A DNA stretch of 14,647 nt from Thermoproteaceae archaeon. GTDB taxonomy: Archaea; Thermoproteota; Thermoprotei; Thermoproteales; Thermoproteaceae. The notes beneath the pieces are model-generated. The model did not search any database and was not told where the DNA came from. It worked only from the letters and a program-made list of their open reading frames with translations. The position numbers were made by a program, and so were the translations under genes. This document shows, piece by piece, positions 4,913-14,647 of this stretch (its first letter is position 1; each line of letters begins with the position of its first letter). Location of the stretch: positions 1 through 14,647 of the forward strand of contig JAJHRB010000040.1 of assembly GCA_020833025.1 (NCBI GenBank). The letters run 5' to 3'.

Positions 4913-6571
4913 CTAGTCGAGCTCCCCCGTTTTCTTCTCCTCCTCCTTCTTCTCCTCTTTCTCCTTCTCTAGCTTCGACGCGGCGATTATCTCGTCAATT
5001 CTCAAGATCATTGACGCGACCTCCACCGCCACCTTAAGCGCGTTGAGCTTGACCGATAGCGGCTCGATGATGCCGAGGGACATCATGTCGACGACCTTGC
5101 CCTGATACACGTCGAGGCCGTACTTCCAGCCGTCAGACTGCTCGTGCCTGTGCCTCAGCTCGGTGATTATATCAATTGGGTCCAGGCCGGCATTCTCGGC
5201 AAGCGTCTTGGGTATTGCCTCTAGGGCCCTTGCAAATGCCTCTATTGCGTACTGCTCCCTGCCGCCAACCTTGGACGCGTAGCCGAGCGCAGCCCTGGCG
5301 GCCTCTACCTCGGCTGCGCCGCCGGCCGGCAGGATGTACGGCTCCTCGATCACGTCGGCCACCACAGACAGCGCGTCGTCGAGATTGCGCTCTGCCTCGT
5401 CAACGAGCCTCTCAAAGCCGCCCCTGACTAGTATCGATACGGCCCTCGGGTTCTTGCACTGCTCGACGAATACCATCTTCTCGTCGCCAACGCGTCTCTC
5501 CTCGACGAGGCCCGCGAAGCCGAGGTCGGCCTCAGTCAGGTCCTCAATACTTGTCACCAGGCGGGCGCCGGCCGCTCTCACTAGCTTCTCGATGTCGCTG
5601 CGCTTCACCCTTCTCACGGCAAGGATTCCGGCCTTTGCCAGGTAGTACTGCGCTATATCGTCAATCCCCTTGGTCGTGAAGACGGCATTCACGCCGAGAG
5701 ACTTGAGCTTCTCGACGTAGCCTCTGAGGATTTTCTCCTCCTCCTCCAGGAATGCCCTGAGCTGGCTCGGATCGTTAATTCTGATCTCAGCATCTATTTC
5801 GGGCTTCTCAACCTCAAGCGGCGCGTCGAGCAGCGCTATCCTGGCATTAATTATGCGCTTTGGCATTGCCGCATGGACCACTTCCTTGTCGATGACAATG
5901 CCGTAGACAAGCTGCGTGTCGAGCAGAGACCCGCCGTGCTTCTTGACGATCTGTATATTGTCCAGGTCGACGTACCACTTCTCTCCTCTCTCCTCGGCCA
6001 CCTGTAGCACTGCCTTGACGGCAATGTCGGTGAAATACTCCTTGACCGTCTCGCTTATCTTGCCGCTCATTGCCGTCATCGCTATCTTCTTCAGCGTGTC
6101 GACCTCGTTGCGTGACGTCGGCACGGCAATCTTGCGCAGGTGCTCGGTCGCGACGTCGAGCGCCCTCTTGTAACCGCTGACTATCACCGTGGGGTGAATA
6201 TTCTTCTCGAGAAGCTTCTCGGCCTCCTCCAGCAGCGCGCCGGCAAGGACTACGGCAGTTGTGGTGCCGTCGCCGGCCTCCTCCTCTTGCGACTTGGCAA
6301 TCTCGACCATCAGCTTAGCTATTGGGTGCTGGACGTCCATCTCGTCCAGTATTGCGGCGCCGTCGTTGGTTATCGTTATGTCGCCTAACGAGTCTATTAG
6401 CATCTTGTCCATGCCCTTAGGTCCTAGAGTCGTCCGGAGGACCTCCGACACAGCCCTGGCAATCATTATATTAAGCCTTAGCGCCTCCTTGCCGTAAGCC
6501 CTCTGCGTGCCCTCCTTGAGCACTAACACAGGGACGCCGCCAATCTGCGTCAGTATTGCCTGGCTGCTCAC
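4913..6571 (-). CDS. ths: Thermosome subunit (group II chaperonin, beta-like); start probably GTG 6571 rather than ATG 6589
   Basis: [29 protein letters not shown] equatorial motifs and a charged C-tail. The TATA at 6592-6599 abuts ATG 6589 but lies about 24 nt from the in-frame GTG 6571 ([21 protein letters not shown]). Confidence 0.97.
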
Positions 6572-6661: not shown

Positions 6662-6756
6662 GCCCCGGTAGTCTAGCCCGGTCAAGGGCGCGGTCCGGCC
6701 ATGGATGCGGGCCTCTCGAGCCCGTGACCCGGGTTCAAATCCCGGCCGGGGCACCA
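6662..6756 (+). tRNA. tRNA-Glu(CUC) with a 17-nt non-canonical intron at position 21/22 (6686-6702) and encoded CCA
   Basis: Acceptor GCCCCGG/CCGGGGC, anticodon stem CGGGC/GCCCG with loop CT-CTC-GA, T arm CCGGG-TTCAAAT-CCCGG, ACCA end. Removing 6686-6702 restores the D arm GTCT-AGCCCGGTCAA-GGAT. A central helix GGTC/GGCC is flanked by 3-nt bulges AAG and ATG (BHB-like). Confidence 0.95.
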
Positions 6757-7752: not shown

Positions 7753-7916
7753 AGGGTTTTTACAAAGTTCCAACATTATAAACTCTCCGGCGCGGGACGG
7801 CGCCCGGCGCGCCGTCAAAAAGCGGCGCCAGCAGGAAGCCGCGCCGTCAAACGGCGGCCCCGTTATCAGAGCGCGCCGTCAAAAAGCGGCGCCGCCCGCC
7901 GCGGCGCGCCGTGAAA
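7731..7916. repeat. Phased GCGCCGTCAAA repeat array (iteron/operator-like)
   Basis: Direct copies start at 7809, 7841, 7873 and 7906 (the last is GCGCCGTGAAA), with spacing 32/32/33 bp. A perfect inverted copy is at 7731-7741 and a partial inverted copy at 7796-7803. An exact 23-bp duplicate occurs at 7807-7829 and 7871-7893. Confidence 0.88.
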
Positions 7917-7954: not shown

Positions 7955-8344
7955 ATGGAGCCCGAGAGGAGACCCGGAACGGCCGCAGTCGCGCCGGTGC
8001 CGATCCCAGCAATCCCCGCCCGCGTTATCAACATGGACAGATTTGGCAGCAAGATAGAGATATCGCTAAGGCCGCCCGCCCACTGGCTGCACAAGATCCG
8101 GCCGGACGCCCGGCACTACGACGCCGTCCTGCTGCTGCCGAACGGGGTGGCGTACTTCGCGCAGCTGACGCTCCACAGGATCACGCGCGGCGGGATGTGT
8201 CTCTTCTACGTCAGGCGCCCCGCCAGCAAGGCAGTCGCCGAGGTGCTGAGGGCAGCGGAGGCGAAGTACATCGGGGTTCTCGACATAGTGCCGAGCCCGC
8301 CGCTGGAAAGGGGACAAGCCGCAGCAAGTAGGCGGCGCCCATGA
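7955..8344 (+). CDS. Hypothetical small beta-rich protein, 129 aa; first gene of the overlapping operon
   Basis: ATG preceded by a G-run; its stop overlaps the next start (ATGA at 8341-8344). It shows weak similarity to the ORF at 14397. Confidence 0.68.
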   Translation: MEPERRPGTAAVAPVPIPAIPARVINMDRFGSKIEISLRPPAHWLHKIRPDARHYDAVLLLPNGVAYFAQLTLHRITRGGMCLFYVRRPASKAVAEVLRAAEAKYIGVLDIVPSPPLERGQAAASRRRP

Positions 8345-11271
8345 CGGGGGCGCCCGCGGCGGCGCTCGCGGGGGCCCGAGACTCCGTACAGGGCCGCGCC
8401 GCCCCGGCCGCCGAAGTGAAGGAGGATTTAAACGCTGCGCTCGCGGGGGAGCGGGGCGCCGGGACGAAAAATGGGGGGAGTCCCTCCCCGGGGGGCGCGC
8501 TGCACGCGGCGCCTGCACGGGGCGCGCACGAGCCCAGCACAGCTCCTGCACAAGCCCTGCACGCGGCGGGGGAGCAGGGCGCGGGCTGCAAGTGCAGGGC
8601 CGCGTCGCGGCGCCTTGTAGAGTGTAAATGCACGGCGGAGAGCGGCGAGGAGGTAGCGGTCTCCGTGGTGGTTGAGCTTGAGTATGGCTACCGCGTGATA
8701 ATCAACGGCAAGACCGCCGTGAGGGCCGAGAGTCTCGCCGCAATCAAGGTGCTGGAGCCCCTGGAGAAAGCCGGCGTGCCCGACCCAGAGGCGCTGGTGA
8801 GAGAGATTGAGAAGCTTCTTAGAGAAGCAAAACGGAGGGCCCGCGTCTCATGTAGAATGGAAAGCGCCGCGCCGCCCACGATAACCTGCCGCGTTGAGAA
8901 CGAGACGCTTGTCGTTAAGCGGGTCGGCGCCGAGTGGTACCTTGTCGAGCCTTACGTGAGGAGAATAGGGCGGCGCTTGAGCCTTGCCGCCGTCGCGGCG
9001 ATAGCGGAGAAATTCCTCGTAATGCCCGAGCGACTGTACGCCGCACTTGCAGAGGAGATCGGCGAGGTGTGTCCCGAGGCGTGGCGCGTTGTGTACTTCC
9101 ACCCCGCCCACGACTACGTCGAGGGCCTCGGCCCCGTTCTCGGCGTGAGGTACACGAGCGGCGAAAGGGAGCACTTCGGCTACGTCTACGTCAGGGACGG
9201 CAGGCTGGAGCTGGCGGACGTCGCCGCGCCCGTCAAGGATGAGGACGCCATGATCATCTACCGCCCCGCGGTCTCCGACCTCCCCAGCATAAGCGGCGTC
9301 CGCGTGTACTTGCCCGACTTCGTCGAGATTCTAGAAGCGTGGAGGGAGGCGCCGACGTTTGCGGGCGTCGCGCGCGAGGCGGAGACGTACATCCGGAGCC
9401 GCGTGACGGCCCCCGACGTCGACGTCAGGTTCGCAACTGCGTTCATCGTTACGTCGCACTTCTTCGTCGTTGCGAGCTATTACCCGGCCTTCGTCATCGG
9501 CAAGCCCGGCTTCGCCGCTGGCGGCACGACGGCGGCAAAGGTTCTGGCGGCGCTCATGCCGAGACCCGCCGTCCTCCTGGATCCCTCGTGGGCGTCGCTA
9601 TTCAGGGCGGCGCACATCTTTCGCCCGACGTATCTTATAGATGAGGTAATCATGGAGCTCGGCGACGAGGCCCTCCGGAACATCCGCCTGTACCTCGTCG
9701 CGCGGTTTGATCAAGACATGTCAGTGCCGAGGGCGGACGATGGCGGGGCACGCCTCGGCACCTATGTTGTGTACTCCAACGCCATCATAGTTGACCCGCA
9801 GGGTCTCGTTGCAAATCTGGCCGTTGTGAGGCGATCACCGCGCGTCGTTCTCTGCCCTGACCCGAACCGGCGGGAAATTATCACCATAAAAAAAGAGCTG
9901 GAGAAGCCTGAGGTCAGGCGACTCGCCGCGAGACTCTACGCGCTGTTCTTGCGCCACGCGGCGGAAATCAAGGCGGAGTACGACAGGGTGGGCGAGATCT
10001 TCCCCTGCCGCGGCGCCGTCCTGCAGGGCTTCGGGCTCCTGCTCCTCGTGGCGAGGCGCATGGGGCAGGAGTACTTAGACGCCGTGGCGGCTAAGATTCG
10101 CGAGTGGGTTGATGAGGTAGGCCTGATGTATGTTATCGGGGATCCTAGTAAATTGGTCTTGGCCAAGGTGCTGGAAGACATCGAGAACCTCGAGGCTTAC
10201 GTCCGCGCGCGGCTCTCGCCGGAGACAGGTTGGTTGACCCCCGAGTCCGTCAGCGGCTCCGAGCCGCCGAAGCCGTGGCGCGTCGACGTCGAGGGCGGGC
10301 GGGTCGTCCTGTGGACGTATTTAGAGTCCTGGCGCAAATACTTACAGCACGCGCTGGGCGAGCTGAAGCAGGTCAGCCGGCGGAAGGGGACTGGGGAGGA
10401 GACGGAGTGGGTGGACACGAGGGTCAGGGACCTGGGCCCAGCGCTCGATCGGAAGGCCTTCGCCGCGTTGCTAAGACCATACCTCTCACACGTTTTGAGA
10501 CGCGAGGAAACTCGGCGGAACCTTAGAGTCGCTTTCACCTCGCTTGACGACATCGCGAGAGCAAGGGAGGCCCTGAGGAGGGCGCTGCCGGAAGGCAGTC
10601 TCGCCGCGTGCCCGCCCGAGCCGCAGCCGGCGGGAGAGACACGCCCCGTGCATGAGTCACCCGCGCCGGGTGCAGAAACAGTGCAGTCCTCGTGCACGCT
10701 GGGTGCGCCGCCGCGTGCAAGCGCCGAGTGCAAGGCTCGGGGGGAGGAGGGGGAGGGGCATGAAAACACTGAGAGCGGCGGGAGCGGCGCCGCCGCCCCG
10801 CCAGCCCCCGCTGCCCAGCAAGAAGCTGCCACCTCCGCACGGCGCGGGCGCGAGGAGGAGACACCGCAAGACGAAGAAAGGGCGAGGGAGGAGCTTGAAC
10901 GCTTTATCGCGGAGCACGCGGCGGGCCGGTCTCCCTCCCCGCCGGCCGTGGCGCCCCCGGGCGCGAGTGCCGAGGAGAGCGCGCGTGCACGGCACGAGGA
11001 CAGAGTTGAGCGGTGCAAGGCGAACATAATTTGCTGGAACCGCTTGCAGGTCTGCATCTGGCGCGAGCTGAGGGGCTCCCCGGAGGAAAAGAAGAAAGCG
11101 GCGCTGGAGGAGCTGGAGAGACAAGGCGAGCTGTTCCGCAAGTGTCTCGCTGACGCGGAGGAGTATGCCGAGAGGGAGACAGGAAGGGGCGGGAGCTCCG
11201 AGAGCGGCGGGATCAGGAAAATGAGCGCGAGGGAGGTGATAGGACGAGTCAGGAAACTGCTCGGCCTGTGA
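8341..11271 (+). CDS. 976-aa multidomain protein with a degenerate P-loop NTPase domain (MGE replication helicase-like)
   Basis: Walker A-position GKPGFAAGGTT (9499-9531), P(S)WASLFR, Walker B TYLIDE (9631-9645), VPR and a late VVRRS. This order and spacing resemble the P-loop domain of primase-associated MGE proteins, such as those with DUF3631. Confidence 0.75.
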   Translation: MTGAPAAALAGARDSVQGRAAPAAEVKEDLNAALAGERGAGTKNGGSPSPGGALHAAPARGAHEPSTAPAQALHAAGEQGAGCKCRAASRRLVECKCTAESGEEVAVSVVVELEYGYRVIINGKTAVRAESLAAIKVLEPLEKAGVPDPEALVREIEKLLREAKRRARVSCRMESAAPPTITCRVENETLVVKRVGAEWYLVEPYVRRIGRRLSLAAVAAIAEKFLVMPERLYAALAEEIGEVCPEAWRVVYFHPAHDYVEGLGPVLGVRYTSGEREHFGYVYVRDGRLELADVAAPVKDEDAMIIYRPAVSDLPSISGVRVYLPDFVEILEAWREAPTFAGVAREAETYIRSRVTAPDVDVRFATAFIVTSHFFVVASYYPAFVIGKPGFAAGGTTAAKVLAALMPRPAVLLDPSWASLFRAAHIFRPTYLIDEVIMELGDEALRNIRLYLVARFDQDMSVPRADDGGARLGTYVVYSNAIIVDPQGLVANLAVVRRSPRVVLCPDPNRREIITIKKELEKPEVRRLAARLYALFLRHAAEIKAEYDRVGEIFPCRGAVLQGFGLLLLVARRMGQEYLDAVAAKIREWVDEVGLMYVIGDPSKLVLAKVLEDIENLEAYVRARLSPETGWLTPESVSGSEPPKPWRVDVEGGRVVLWTYLESWRKYLQHALGELKQVSRRKGTGEETEWVDTRVRDLGPALDRKAFAALLRPYLSHVLRREETRRNLRVAFTSLDDIARAREALRRALPEGSLAACPPEPQPAGETRPVHESPAPGAETVQSSCTLGAPPRASAECKARGEEGEGHENTESGGSGAAAPPAPAAQQEAATSARRGREEETPQDEERAREELERFIAEHAAGRSPSPPAVAPPGASAEESARARHEDRVERCKANIICWNRLQVCIWRELRGSPEEKKKAALEELERQGELFRKCLADAEEYAERETGRGGSSESGGIRKMSAREVIGRVRKLLGL

Positions 11272-11588
11272 TGCTGCCAAGCTACCGTATCGCGCTTGCG
11301 GTCGCGAAGTATCTCTGCCGCCACCTAAGCGCGGGAATCTTCAGGCTCGTCGACGACATCGTCAGGGACCCCTCGCTGCTGCCCGTCCTGGCGGGGCTCG
11401 GCGCTGTTGAGACCGTCGGCGGCGTGCCCGCGGCGCCGAGGCCGGGAGCGCCGGGGTGGTGGCGCGCCCACGACGCCGTGCTCGACGCCGTGCTCTATCT
11501 CGAGGCCAGGGGCGTCGCCAAGTATCTGCCTGACGTGGGGGTGGTCAACTGGGCGGGCAGGCCGTGCGCTCCCGGCGCGCGGCCGTGA
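11268..11588 (+). CDS. Hypothetical protein, 106 aa, possibly winged-helix
   Basis: Overlaps both neighbours by 4 nt. The C-terminal VLDAVLYLEARGVAKYLPDVGVVNW resembles a wHTH helix plus wing. Confidence 0.65.
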   Translation: MMLPSYRIALAVAKYLCRHLSAGIFRLVDDIVRDPSLLPVLAGLGAVETVGGVPAAPRPGAPGWWRAHDAVLDAVLYLEARGVAKYLPDVGVVNWAGRPCAPGARP

Positions 11589-12733
11589 GCGCCATCACCC
11601 TCAGCGGCCTTTACGGCTTCGCGGATCTGTACGTCAGGGGCAGGCTGGCCGAAGAGTTTGCTAGACAGCGCGGCGTCGCGCCGTGCCGCGAGTACGGCGC
11701 GCCGGCGAGGCTCGGCCTCGTCTGCGACGGCGGGGAGCTCGTCCGGCTGATCCTCGAAGCAGAGAGGGGGCGGCTCAAGAGGGGCGGCGGCCCCAACCAC
11801 CTCTTCATCAGCATGGCCCTGGTGGACTGGCGGCTGTACCACGACCCGCAGGCAAGGCCGCAGTCGTACGTCGCTCTCGACAGGGCGTGCATCGACCTGG
11901 ACATCCCTGCTGAGTGCGCACAGGACAAGTGGTGCCGGGCCGCCAGGCTCGGCAGGCTGAAGGCCGCGCTGCGGGAGAAGCTCCGCAAGTATAGGGACGT
12001 CCTTTGGGCCGAGTGGACCGGCTTCAAGGGCTACCGCCTATGCGCGTGGCTCCCGCGCCTCCTGCCCGCGGACAGGGCGGTGCTGGAGAGGATACAGCTC
12101 TGGCTCGCGAGGGGGCTCGAGGAGTGGCTTGACCGCCACGCCGTCGGCGACGTAAAACGGCTGTTCCGCGTGCCGTACTCAATTAACCCCAAGTCGGGAG
12201 ACAGGGCTGCCATCGTCGACCACCTGCTCGAGGAGCTGTCAGCGCGGGAGACGGCAGAGCGCCTAATGTCGCTAAGGCCGCTCGACGCGCGCGTGCTCGA
12301 CAGGCTCGCGCGGGAGGCCGTTCTCGAGGCGTTCGCGAGGGAGCGCGGGGCGCGCGAGGCCAGAAGGCCGGGGGGCCGCGCGGCGGGGAGGCTCCCGCGC
12401 TGGATCCAGGCGCTGATCGAGTACATGAGACAGACCGGCAACCTGTGCCACGCCGCGCGCGTCGCGGTGGCGCGCTGGCTTTACTTCGCGGGATACAGCC
12501 GCGAGGAAATCATTGGGGTCTTCAGGGCGGCGGCGGACTTCGACGAGAGGAAGACGGCCTACCACGTCGACTACGAGATAAGGCGCATGGGCGAGGAGTG
12601 CCGCGCGTGGCAGCCCGAGGAATGCAGGGAGAGACCGTGGCGCTGCGAGACGGTAGTGAGGACGTGCGAGGGCAAGAAGGTGCCGCCGAGCCTGCCGGAG
12701 CTGTGCCCGGGGCGCCGTGAGGACGTGCATTAA
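11585..12733 (+). CDS. Archaeo-eukaryotic primase: PriS-like catalytic domain fused to a PriL C-terminal-like domain; start probably GTG 11585
   Basis: Motif I IDLD (11891-11902), motif II TGFKGYR (12017-12037), motif III GDVKRLFRVPYSINPKSG (from 12146). The C-terminal LPRWI...GNLCHAARVAVARWLYFAGYSREEIIGVFRAAADFDERKTAYHVDY...PWRCET...C matches the PriL-CTD pattern. GTG 11585 overlaps the upstream TGA. Confidence 0.85.
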   Translation: MSAITLSGLYGFADLYVRGRLAEEFARQRGVAPCREYGAPARLGLVCDGGELVRLILEAERGRLKRGGGPNHLFISMALVDWRLYHDPQARPQSYVALDRACIDLDIPAECAQDKWCRAARLGRLKAALREKLRKYRDVLWAEWTGFKGYRLCAWLPRLLPADRAVLERIQLWLARGLEEWLDRHAVGDVKRLFRVPYSINPKSGDRAAIVDHLLEELSARETAERLMSLRPLDARVLDRLAREAVLEAFARERGAREARRPGGRAAGRLPRWIQALIEYMRQTGNLCHAARVAVARWLYFAGYSREEIIGVFRAAADFDERKTAYHVDYEIRRMGEECRAWQPEECRERPWRCETVVRTCEGKKVPPSLPELCPGRREDVH

Positions 12734-13277
12734 GGTCCTCAGGGAGCTCGAAGAGGCCGCCCGCCGCTGGAACCTCGGCGCGGTCAAGGAGCTGGTGCGG
12801 GAGGCCGCCAGGCGCTGCGGGCCGGGAGAGCTGCGGGAGGCCCTCGCCGCGAGGGTCGCACCGGCGCTCGCGGAGGCGGCGCTCAGAGTTGCGGTGGAGC
12901 TGTACAGGCGGCTCGAGCCGGCGGTGGGCCGGGGCCGCGCGCTGGAGGCGGCGCTCGAGGAGGCCTCCGGCAAGCTGGCGCGTCTCGAGTCGCCGTGCTG
13001 GCTGGCGGAGGCGGCCGCGAGGGCCGTGCCGCAGGCGCTCGCGCGGCTGGGCTGGGAGGGGCCGAGGTGGCCCTTCGCCGCCAGGCTGCTGGTGACCCTC
13101 CACCTCGACTGTGGCGGCGTGCCTGACGGCGTGCTGGAGGCGTTCGGCCCCGAGGAGGCGGCGGCAATACTGTCATTCCTCGAGGAGGGGGCGGCCGTCC
13201 TCGACGCGGGCCCCGCGCCCGTGGCGCTGTACTCGTCGCGTCTCCTGCTGCGCGGCGGGCGGCGGTCACGGCCGTGA
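12717..13277 (+). CDS. Hypothetical Ala/Glu/Arg-rich helical protein, 186 aa
   Basis: Overlaps the primase stop by 17 nt and closes the operon. No family recognised. Confidence 0.65.
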   Translation: MRTCIKVLRELEEAARRWNLGAVKELVREAARRCGPGELREALAARVAPALAEAALRVAVELYRRLEPAVGRGRALEAALEEASGKLARLESPCWLAEAAARAVPQALARLGWEGPRWPFAARLLVTLHLDCGGVPDGVLEAFGPEEAAAILSFLEEGAAVLDAGPAPVALYSSRLLLRGGRRSRP

Positions 13278-13341
13278 CCCCGGCGCCCGGCTCTGCCTCC
13301 GGGCGCGCGCATGTGCTTTCTCTAGTCTCCACGCCCGGTGC

Positions 13342-13492
13342 CCGGTGGTTAGCGTGGTGAGCGTGTTGAGTCTCCGAAGCCCTTGGCAGATATTGAAAAA
13401 TGGGCGGCAAATGTCGAAACCGCTCTCCCGGCTGGCATCGACTCAAGTAAAGCGCAAAGGGGACTAACCACTATCACCGCGCTAACCACCGG
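13342..13492. repeat. 31-bp imperfect inverted repeat, each arm CCGG plus three 9-bp units, flanking an 89-bp spacer
   Basis: Left arm 13342-13372 reads CCGG TGGTTAGCG TGGTGAGCG TGTTGAGTC. The reverse complement of 13462-13492 reads CCGG TGGTTAGCG CGGTGATAG TGGTTAGTC (26/31 identical). Confidence 0.85.
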
Positions 13493-13638
13493 CCGCCGTG
13501 GAGCTGGTCGTGGCTGTTCTTCTATTGCGCGCTTGCCGCCCGGTGGCCGCGGGCCGGCGCGCGCCGGAACCGGCCGGTTCTCGCGCCGCGCGCCAGAACC
13601 CCCGAGTGGCTTATCAAGCCGGAACCACCCCTTGCGGC

Positions 13639-14271
13639 GTGGCCCTCCGCCTCGTGGCCTACGTCCGCGTCTCGCGGGAGGACGAGCGGCCGGAGAACCA
13701 GGAGTTCGCGATATTCCGCTGGGCGGCAGAGAGGGGCCACCAGATAGTCGAGGTCGTGAGGGACGCTGGCATCTCCGGCGCGCTGCCGCCTAATGAGAGG
13801 CCCGGCTGGCAGAGGGCCATGGAGCTGCTCGGGCAGGCAGACGGCGTTGTCGTCTACGCGCTGGACCGCGTGGCGCGCAGCCTGTGGGACCTGGCGCAAG
13901 TCGTCAGGGAGCTCGAATCAAAAGGCAAGCTGCTGATATCCGTGCGAGAGGAGTGGCTGCAGCAGCTGGACCCGAGGGTGCGCCAGCTGATTGTCGGCAT
14001 TCTGGGCTGGGCCGCCGAGATGGAACGCGAGTTCATCCGCGAGAGGACGCGCGAGGCGCTGGCCAGGCTGAGGGCAATGGGCAGGCGCGTGGGCAGGCCC
14101 CCGAGGTGGAGCGAGACGCTGCGCCGCCGCATAATCGACCTCGTGAGGAGGGGCATCACGCTGAGAGATGCCTGCAGGCTCGTGGGGGTAGGCTACAGGA
14201 CGGCGCTCAGGTACCTCAGCCGCGACCCGGAGTACCTCAAGGCGAGGGCCGAGGCGAGGCTCAAGGGCTGA
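13639..14271 (+). CDS. Small serine recombinase (resolvase/invertase type) with C-terminal HTH, about 210 aa
   Basis: Catalytic YVRVS, D-x-G-I-S-G, RPG, LDRVARS, the E-helix AEMEREFIRERTREALARLRAMGRRVGRPP, and HTH GITLRDACRLVGVGYRTALRYL. TTATCAA at 13611-13617 supports GTG 13639 rather than 13498 as the start. Confidence 0.93.
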   Translation: MALRLVAYVRVSREDERPENQEFAIFRWAAERGHQIVEVVRDAGISGALPPNERPGWQRAMELLGQADGVVVYALDRVARSLWDLAQVVRELESKGKLLISVREEWLQQLDPRVRQLIVGILGWAAEMEREFIRERTREALARLRAMGRRVGRPPRWSETLRRRIIDLVRRGITLRDACRLVGVGYRTALRYLSRDPEYLKARAEARLKG

Positions 14272-14396
14272 GCCTGCGGGGAGGGAGCACGCCTCCTGTC
14301 GGCGGAAGTGCATCTCCTCACCTCTCGGCAGCACAGCAACTCGCCACCGCCAGGAGGGCCGCGCGCCAATTTAAGCGGCGCCGCGCCCATGCCGGC

Positions 14397-14647
14397 ATGC
14401 CGCGCTACAGGCCGATAGTCATCAAATACCCCCTGCCCTGCGCGCTGGCGCGAATCATCAAGTGCGGCGACAGGGAGCACCCCTGGCAGATGTGTCTCTC
14501 GCTGGCGGGCCCGTCGAGAGAGCTCGCCGAGCTGCTCGTGCAGACGCGGCGGGTGACCCTGTACGTGGCCGTGCGGGAGAGGCTCTACGGCTGGCGCGCC
14601 CGCCTCTGCCGCGTTAAGAGACACGTGTATCAATTCTGCCTGCTGGC
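14397..14647 (+). CDS. Hypothetical protein, 3'-truncated by the window; absent from the supplied ORF track
   Basis: ATG 14397 lies about 22-27 nt after TTTAAG (14370-14375). The frame stays open to the end: MPRYRPIVIKYPLPCALARIIKCGDREHPWQMCLSLAGPSRELAELLVQTRRVTLYVAVRERLYGWRARLCRVKRHVYQFCLL... Confidence 0.72.
   Translation, partial: MPRYRPIVIKYPLPCALARIIKCGDREHPWQMCLSLAGPSRELAELLVQTRRVTLYVAVRERLYGWRARLCRVKRHVYQFCLL

Follow-up and report, generated by a model that had tools for sequence, protein, structure and literature searches.

The window, a stretch of 14,647 nucleotides, corresponds to contig C115, which belongs to a Thermoproteales genome of 1.56 Mb that was assembled from a hot-spring metagenome. 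Its unitigs broke at 6732/6733, inside a tRNA gene, and beyond this point the depth in the best-matching run fell from approximately 250–280 to 140–150. The right-hand half of the window, from about 6733, is accordingly an integrated mobile element, and this point inside the tRNA gene is where it integrated. ARAGORN detected a tRNA at 6662–6756 only. This tRNA carried an insert of about 25 nt in the D-loop region; it was identified as Gly(GCC) by ARAGORN, while the Rfam alignment gave the anticodon CUC (Glu).

The element consisted, in order, of a small gene, a 976-aa P-loop protein, a 106-aa gene, a primase-like gene, a 186-aa gene, a palindrome and a serine recombinase. The coding features were delimited as follows.

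7955–8344: small gene, the first of the element's listed genes
8341–11271, plus strand: 976-aa P-loop (helicase-like) replication protein, with the family consensus GKPGFGTGGTT..K and VIDE
10996–11178, plus strand: C-terminal module (CTD) of the 976-aa protein, beginning RVERCKANIICWNRLQVCIW; candidate binder of the nonamers described below
11564–12733, plus strand: primase-like protein (Pfam DNA_primase_lrg, 6.9e-7; NCBIfam PriL, 2.4e-14, corresponding to the PriL C-terminal domain)
12717–13277, plus strand: last gene of the operon, 186 aa, taken from the ORF list; 31% identical to the gene that follows PolB in the related contig L012
13639–14271, plus strand: small serine recombinase of the resolvase/invertase type, 210 aa (Pfam Resolvase, 4.9e-33, plus HTH_23; PHROG DNA invertase, 3.5e-40)

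The palindromic module lay 59 bp 3' of the last operon stop (13277) and 140 bp 5' of the recombinase start, the true start of that gene being the GTG at 13639 and not 13498. Among the window ORFs scanned with Pfam there was no Orc1/Cdc6 domain. The 976-aa protein had no Pfam match and no sequence match in the PDB, nor did its family profile match the PDB; AF2 yielded only a low-quality model (pLDDT 59.5), for which no structural match was significant, Cch (5dgk) standing at rank 25 (E = 0.18).

Two other sets of short repeats were noted in the element. Three CCRGAACC sites were situated at 13564–13626 (spacing 29 and 26 bp), just 5' of the recombinase start, accompanied by a GAACCGGCCGGTTC palindrome at 13567–13580 and by CTTATCAAG at 13610–13618, about 25 bp 5' of the GTG. 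The window contained four CCRGAACC sites where 1.2 were expected, which is a weak signal; the cluster, the palindrome and CTTATCAAG may together form an operator and promoter belonging to the recombinase itself. The second set comprised four palindromic GCGCCGTCAAAAAGCGGCGC-type units at 7807–7894, 5' of the replication operon. At the same position in a related element of G043, a complete genome of the same genus, about five TGCACC repeats occurred beside AT-rich DNA (L020:3960–4050). The repeats 5' of the operon in the window are a candidate for an alternative origin or operator.

Anatomy of the palindromic nonamer module

The initial annotation had reported inverted arms with 26 of 31 positions identical around an 89-bp spacer, and a recount gave the same figures: 13342–13372 matched the reverse complement of 13462–13492 at 26/31 positions, while shuffling of the surrounding 2 kb (n = 20) gave inverted matches over 31 nt of 19–22/31 at best. 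A repeat search extended the arms to 49 nt each, 76% complementary and 65 nt apart. The arms had also been described as built of 9-bp repeats, and this was borne out by five exact matches to GTGKTKAGY in the window, every one of them within the arms (0.44 expected; five or more in 0 of 200 shuffles). These started at 13345, 13354 and 13363 on the plus strand, and at 13463 and 13481 on the minus strand; a sixth nonamer was degenerate. Each arm consisted of direct nonamers, and neither contained a reverse-complement half-site or an internal dyad. The 65-nt centre had a G+C content of 52%, in a neighbourhood of approximately 70%. When 13325–13505 was folded as a single strand, the predicted energy was -86 kcal/mol, with z = -5.7 for the plus strand and z = -4.5 for the minus strand. 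The parts of the module were placed as follows; C12a and M1 are copies on the contigs C12 and L012, respectively.

13326–13505: whole imperfect palindrome, extended stem plus centre; the minimum free energy structure pairs 13326–13332 with 13499–13505 onward
13336–13384, plus strand: left arm with flanking complementarity; GTGGTTAGC at 13345–13353, GTGGTGAGC at 13354–13362 and GTGTTGAGT at 13363–13371
13450–13498, minus strand: right arm; GTGGTTAGT at 13463–13471, the degenerate GCGGTGATA at 13472–13480 and GTGGTTAGC at 13481–13489
13374–13385, plus strand: core block A, CCGAAGCCCTTG, unchanged across all three copies from this genome; a single T to C in M1
13390–13401, plus strand: AT patch, ATATTGAAAAAT, within the variable block of the core; replaced by GGCGTTGGGGAA in C12a
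13404–13423, plus strand: core block B, GCGRCAAATRTCGAAACCGC, conserved between copies
13445–13459, plus strand: core block C, AAGTAAAGCGCAAAG, identical in four copies and part of the pattern that retrieved L012

Both the AT patch and the situation of the spacer, between the end of the operon and the recombinase gene, were as originally reported. The feature in the window is one copy of a palindromic iteron module of approximately 165–180 bp, in which opposed arrays of two to four GTGKTKAGY nonamers surround a 65–92-bp core of lower G+C content with three conserved blocks.

Copies of the module and the constraint upon them

Two further copies were found on another contig of the same genome, C12 (L013), which represents a separate integrated element. 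C12b (8070–8250) was 94% identical to the window module and lay 5' of a recombinase gene that was 82% identical to that of the window, while C12a (5502–5637) was 74% identical to the window module. C12 was bracketed by 83-bp direct repeats (520–602 and 11340–11422; 97.6% identical), which are probably the attL and attR of an integrated replicon of about 10.8 kb; it encoded a tyrosine integrase (10055–11284, minus strand) and a family B DNA polymerase. Only three patches were common to the two elements, namely the 3'-terminal 60 or so codons for the large replication protein, the module itself, and the region of the recombinase. The patch containing module and recombinase corresponded to 13250–14451 in the window and to 7995–8310 and 8753–9653 in C12, and the CTD patch of the window started just past the point matching the end of C12a. 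Between its module and recombinase, C12 had approximately 440 bp that were absent from the window; this extra segment opened with an AT-rich stretch (TTTTCAATAATCAAAATAAGTATTAAATACTT, 8311–8345) and possibly contains an ORF on the minus strand.

A search with a pattern made of two invariant core blocks identified L012, a hot-spring metagenome contig of 14.5 kb that is a relative of C12 at about 70%. It contained M1, at the position of C12a; M2, a full copy beside an integrase; and M3, a partial copy. Next to the gene for a 249-aa tyrosine integrase, at L012:307–385, nine 9-bp units akin to the arm nonamer (consensus TTCACTAAC) also formed a direct array, which may be a control or handcuffing locus. 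In both C12 and L012, a module was located inside the large replication gene, next to the family B polymerase. The contexts of the copies were a coding linker, an intergenic position after polB, a position beside an integrase, and a position after the primase operon.

The application of DNA searches to 62 genomes of the order revealed no module outside the source genome (G000), and among 401 phylum genomes the arm-core-arm pattern matched G000 but none of the other 400. A viral contig collection returned no match to two core patterns or to the C12 PolB protein, and within the host genome there were no copies beyond those of the window and C12. The integrative replicons that carry the module form a small pool within hot-spring Thermoproteales. 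Literature searches found no published description of this element family.

C12a and M1 were both in frame within long ORFs, of 1198 aa and 1526 aa respectively, where they form a linker just before a conserved C-terminal domain. A HMMER search with the C12 protein recovered the translated module in the linkers of P0028, P0031, P0033 and P0040; the copies in these proteins and in P0004 were deduced from their translated peptides. P0028 had three tandem module-derived units (residues ~1075–1230) and P0031 likewise had multiple units (two or three). Differences between the window copy and C12a were distributed over the codon positions as 12/12/12, and those between C12a and M1, both of which are coding, as 6/6/8. 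The left arm was read in different frames in these two copies, giving GVERVEF in C12a and MVSGGEVVS in M1 through compensating 1-nt indels. The module stood out as an island of 44–50/60 identity, while the adjoining linker had 25/60 or consisted mostly of gaps. The even spread across codon positions, the differing arm frames and the island of identity indicate a constraint on the nucleic acid rather than on the peptide, and the module accordingly functions at the level of DNA or RNA, most likely as DNA. The window copy has a TAG in the linker frame and is intergenic.

The number of nonamers varied between arms and between copies. In C12a there were two units on the left and four on the right, and the near-identical proteins P0004 and C12 differed by one unit, (LNT)3 as against (LNT)4. 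Together with the direct nine-unit array of L012, these variable numbers mark the nonamer as a unit in its own right, which would favour protein binding over a simple stem. The two arms also changed together, however: GTGTTGAGC was accompanied by GCTCAACAC in C12a, and GTGGTTAGT by ACTAACCAC in L012; both arms of P0028 had altered, to VVN at the left and FTT at the right, and those of M2 formed a perfect 29/29 mirror, including an irregular 10/8 spacing. This covariation and the M2 mirror imply that the two arms also interact or recombine, and it counts against a pure binding-site reading.

Recombinase, core orientation and CTD

The serine recombinase was separable from the module. In the G043 element, the helicase, small gene and primase are followed, after 225 bp, by a serine recombinase approximately 69% identical to that of the window, but this spacer contained no such repeats. 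A recombinase-based search of genome contigs yielded three loci, none of which had the module; relatives of the recombinase without a module comprised those of L020 (the G043 element just described, 69%), L009 (62%) and L010 (58%) and the C18 paralog (38%). No serine recombinase was found on the 14.5 kb of L012, though the module was present there. To judge from these loci, the module is inherited independently of the recombinase.

The orientation of the core relative to its flanks was not constant. With the flanks of M2 (L012:12905–13057) and M1 (L012:6511–6660) aligned, their 92-bp cores matched only as reverse complements (score 22, against -7 for the direct comparison and -15.5 ± 4.6 for shuffles); the right flanks scored 27 over 60 nt. 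Independently, at the orthologous in-ORF site, residues 167–214 of P0033 matched L012 on the strand opposite the ORF (48 aa at 67% identity, E = 1e-10), and an opposite-strand match was seen in C12 and the window also, while the arm peptides and the downstream flank were colinear with the ORF. The reading frame of P0033 was open through the reversed core; in M1 the reverse frame is interrupted by a stop. The other core orientation was observed in C12a, M1, P0004, P0028, P0031 and P0040. As cores of either orientation exist between colinear flanks, the segment has been inverted during evolution, by these alignments at least once, and probably twice over the history of the family, with at least one in-frame coding copy surviving. 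The flipped orientation anticipated by the initial annotation was therefore found among relatives (M2 and P0033), but at the module the assembled contigs of three runs had no strand-switch joint, a weak test given that contigs drop rare variants. All three recombinase-adjacent copies (in the window, in C12b and in a C12-like contig of run X2) had the same orientation.

Two explanations centre on recombination; an invertible switch and a res site had both been raised at the outset. If the segment were invertible by programme, a site-specific recombinase, the adjacent one or another, would flip the core and thereby switch a directional signal, or else, in relatives, the replication protein's linker peptide. 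A small recombinase of the invertase/resolvase type only 140 bp away, the reversed cores of M2 and P0033, and the mirror symmetry of the M2 arms, which is expected if arms recombine, all agree with this, and the Hin, Gin and Mpi systems likewise combine a small serine recombinase beside inverted repeats with a segment found in both orientations among relatives. Hin and Gin, however, act at dyad crossover sites of about 26 bp that are inherited with the recombinase; the arms of the module have no internal dyad, recombinase relatives lack the module (including one of 69% identity in the same gene context), L012 holds a flipped copy with no serine recombinase, and neither the recombinase-adjacent copies nor the assemblies examined showed a flipped form. 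Inverted repeats of 27–49 bp can, moreover, invert unprogrammed, by homologous recombination or template switching. The original proposal of a phase-variation switch had depended on a TATA-like element, but the AT patch is variable and is GC-rich in C12a, so it was rejected as a conserved TATA box. Programmed inversion was accordingly judged quite improbable, and a true archaeal flip-flop, in which site-specific recombination, or the processing of a hairpin/cruciform at an origin, would serve as a dedicated means of inverting the core, was considered doubtful to the same degree. Alternatively, the module could be another kind of recombination site, either a res-like site for dimer resolution by the serine recombinase or a hotspot for module exchange between co-resident elements. 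Its position directly 5' of the recombinase in the window and in C12 resembles that of res beside resolvase genes, the Tn3/gamma-delta res likewise being a site of approximately 120–160 bp directly 5' of a resolvase-type gene; furthermore, module and recombinase form one patch common to two otherwise unrelated elements, and the CTD patch of the window starts just after the end point of C12a. Unlike res, though, the module has no dyad-symmetric subsites, where res has three, and it occurs in replication genes far from recombinases. It fails to co-occur with the recombinase here just as for the switch; the two direct copies in C12, as efficient res sites, would delete polB; coding-linker copies have been kept in six or more relatives near which no recombinase is known; and the CCRGAACC cluster at 13564–13626, itself weak, offers a different possible operator for the recombinase. 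The position anticipated for a res site was thus confirmed while its subsites and co-inheritance were absent, and a recombination site of either sort appears rather unlikely.

The CTD, by contrast, followed the module. The window CTD (10996–11178) was 87.6% identical at the nucleotide level to C12 5694–5875, and the CTD (RVERCKANIICWNRLQVCIW...EEYAERE) was present in all three module-bearing replicons: the window, C12 and L012. It was absent from all 23 metagenomic homologs of the window helicase (62–74% identical), which stop at or shortly after an ELERFIxEH motif, and both related elements of G043 lacked the CTD and the module alike. On this distribution the module would travel with the CTD and not with the recombinase, although the evidence from co-occurrence is thin, since three replicons carry the module at the DNA level and two of them share a host. 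The CTD was also found on P0042, a primase-polymerase-like protein, and as small stand-alone proteins; its relatives included P0042, P0043, P0045 and P0046, and in the window it is inserted in the tail of the helicase. Its occurrence on several types of protein identifies it as a portable module. AF2 modelled the CTD with confidence (pLDDT 79) as a four-helix bundle, and four of its cysteines are invariant. Fold searches with Foldseek and VIA-align returned only generic helical matches (Z <= 5.1), with no DNA-binding or PDB match, and the Atlas contained no usable match. At about 60 residues, helical and Cys-containing, the CTD is the best candidate for the binder of the nonamers, a role proposed from its co-occurrence with the module; the structural matches were uninformative. 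It could instead be a protein-protein module, being found on other replication proteins also.

A putative iteron and stem-loop origin

Three explanations remained in which the module acts, or spreads, without the recombinase and without being an origin. The first two concern DNA. An array that binds protein in another role, as a copy-number or handcuffing locus, a centromere-like partition site or an operator, would be served equally well by the evidence that the nonamer is the unit, and by the occurrence of several arrays per element, including the direct nine-unit array of L012; multiple arrays of this kind are comparable to the control loci of iteron plasmids, such as P1 incA and F incC. 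Pfam recognised no ParA/ParB-like or repressor genes in the elements of the window, C12 and L012, however, and a simple operator needs neither a conserved asymmetric core nor a long palindrome, so this role was regarded as unlikely. A selfish palindromic repeat (MITE-like, or a quasi-palindrome), spreading in mobile elements and tolerated in frame within a disordered linker, would account for the varied contexts, for the one to three tandem units of P0028 and P0031, and for the partial copy in L012. But there was no target-site duplication, since the flanks simply continue the inverted repeat, and no associated transposase; copies occurred only inside related mobile elements, being absent from the rest of the host genome and from 400 phylum genomes, and the three asymmetric core blocks were strongly conserved over protein relatives of about 57% identity. 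A MITE was therefore rejected, and selfish spread in general is improbable. The last explanation is a structured RNA, that is, a long hairpin with a regulatory or stabilising role at the 3' end of the operon and within rep mRNA, or alternatively a small RNA gene. The folding z-scores of both strands and the joint changes of the two arm sides would suit it; yet Rfam 15 contained nothing relevant at the gathering score or at E <= 10 (the best matches, at E ~ 9, were unrelated, one of them just touching the start of the left arm), the RNAalifold covariation term was +2.36, which amounts to no net support, and the inner nonamer pair was mismatched at 2/9 positions in the window copy and in C12b (left GTGTTGAGT, right GTGGTTAGT). 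Unit numbers were also unequal between arms, a flipped core alters the RNA sequence while the DNA site stays, and a direct nonamer array is unable to form a stem. An RNA function was consequently thought highly improbable.

Given the repeats and their conservation, the constraint on nucleotides, the position after the operon, the co-occurrence with the CTD and the independence from the recombinase, the module was tentatively interpreted by analogy as the iteron and stem-loop origin of the replicon, or its initiator-loading site, or a copy thereof; the likelihood of this was put at a little under even. Of the three models in the initial annotation, the origin fits best, because the module lies directly after the helicase-primase operon, because its short repeats are opposed around a centre of lower G+C content, and because it co-occurs with the CTD. 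In such an origin, a replication protein encoded by the element would bind the nonamers, in opposite orientation on each side, with the CTD of the helicase as the proposed binding part; helicase would then be loaded on both sides, the lower-G+C centre or an extruded stem-loop would be opened, and the neighbouring primase would start synthesis. Several observations count against it. There is a second candidate at 7807–7894, 5' of the operon; C12 and L012 carry two or more copies each, which is unusual for an origin; the AT patch is missing from C12a, although a reduced G+C content (54%) persists in its core; and the CTD, as modelled, has no DNA-binding signature.

Three characterised origins offer precedents. 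The anatomy agrees with that of origins in replicons whose helicase is self-loading. In staphylococcal pathogenicity islands (SaPI), which are of this type, ori lies just 3' of rep, opposed iterons flank an AT-rich centre, and the C-terminal domain of Rep binds them (PMC9371898). The module is similar in being directly 3' of primase and helicase genes, and in its opposed repeats around a lower-G+C centre (three per side, one degenerate). SaPI specificity resides in the helicase C-terminal domain, while the CTD is a candidate binder only, a predicted Cys-containing four-helix bundle for which fold searches gave no winged-helix match; the SaPI units are penta- or hexamers rather than nonamers, and the present host is archaeal. 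The conserved asymmetric core blocks and the copies embedded in coding DNA are further differences. In pRN1 of Sulfolobus, a 100-nt stem-loop 3' of orf904 is needed for replication and works when moved (PMC4234260). This too is a crenarchaeal replicon with a long, stable stem-loop 3' of a replication gene; the resemblance is one of anatomy, and the module differs in having a stem of repeated nonamers, in being approximately 180 nt long and in being present in several copies per element. The iterons of ori-lambda are four dyad-symmetric 19-mers, whereas the units of the module are direct nonamers in two opposed sets. Gene O contains ori-lambda (PMC6022878), and the module is comparably translated, as a linker of the replication protein before its C-terminal domain, in C12, L012, P0028, P0031, P0033 and P0040; the window copy differs in being intergenic. 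Because it has neither the crossover sites of Hin and Gin nor the subsites of res, no Rfam match and no MITE hallmarks, the module falls outside every described family, and by analogy with these precedents it might well, with a probability approaching one half, work like an iteron and stem-loop origin.

To our knowledge, the origins of crenarchaeal plasmids and integrated elements have been established for very few families, pRN1 being the main case. What is new here is the window copy with its recombinase context, the dissociation of module and recombinase, the link to a portable CTD, and the two orientation classes. For this undescribed family of integrative replicons from Thermoproteales, the module provides a concrete candidate origin that can be tested, and the CTD a candidate specificity domain that has moved among helicase, primase-polymerase-like and other replication proteins. 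If the flip-flop were real, relatives would invert the core inside the ORF of a replication protein with both orientations open, and the roles of coding linker, origin-like site and invertible segment would coincide in a single stretch of DNA. Since the same DNA is translated as a linker in relatives, in both orientations, the module offers a system in which DNA-level and coding constraints can be compared near boiling; if functional, it could seed vectors for Pyrobaculum-type hosts.
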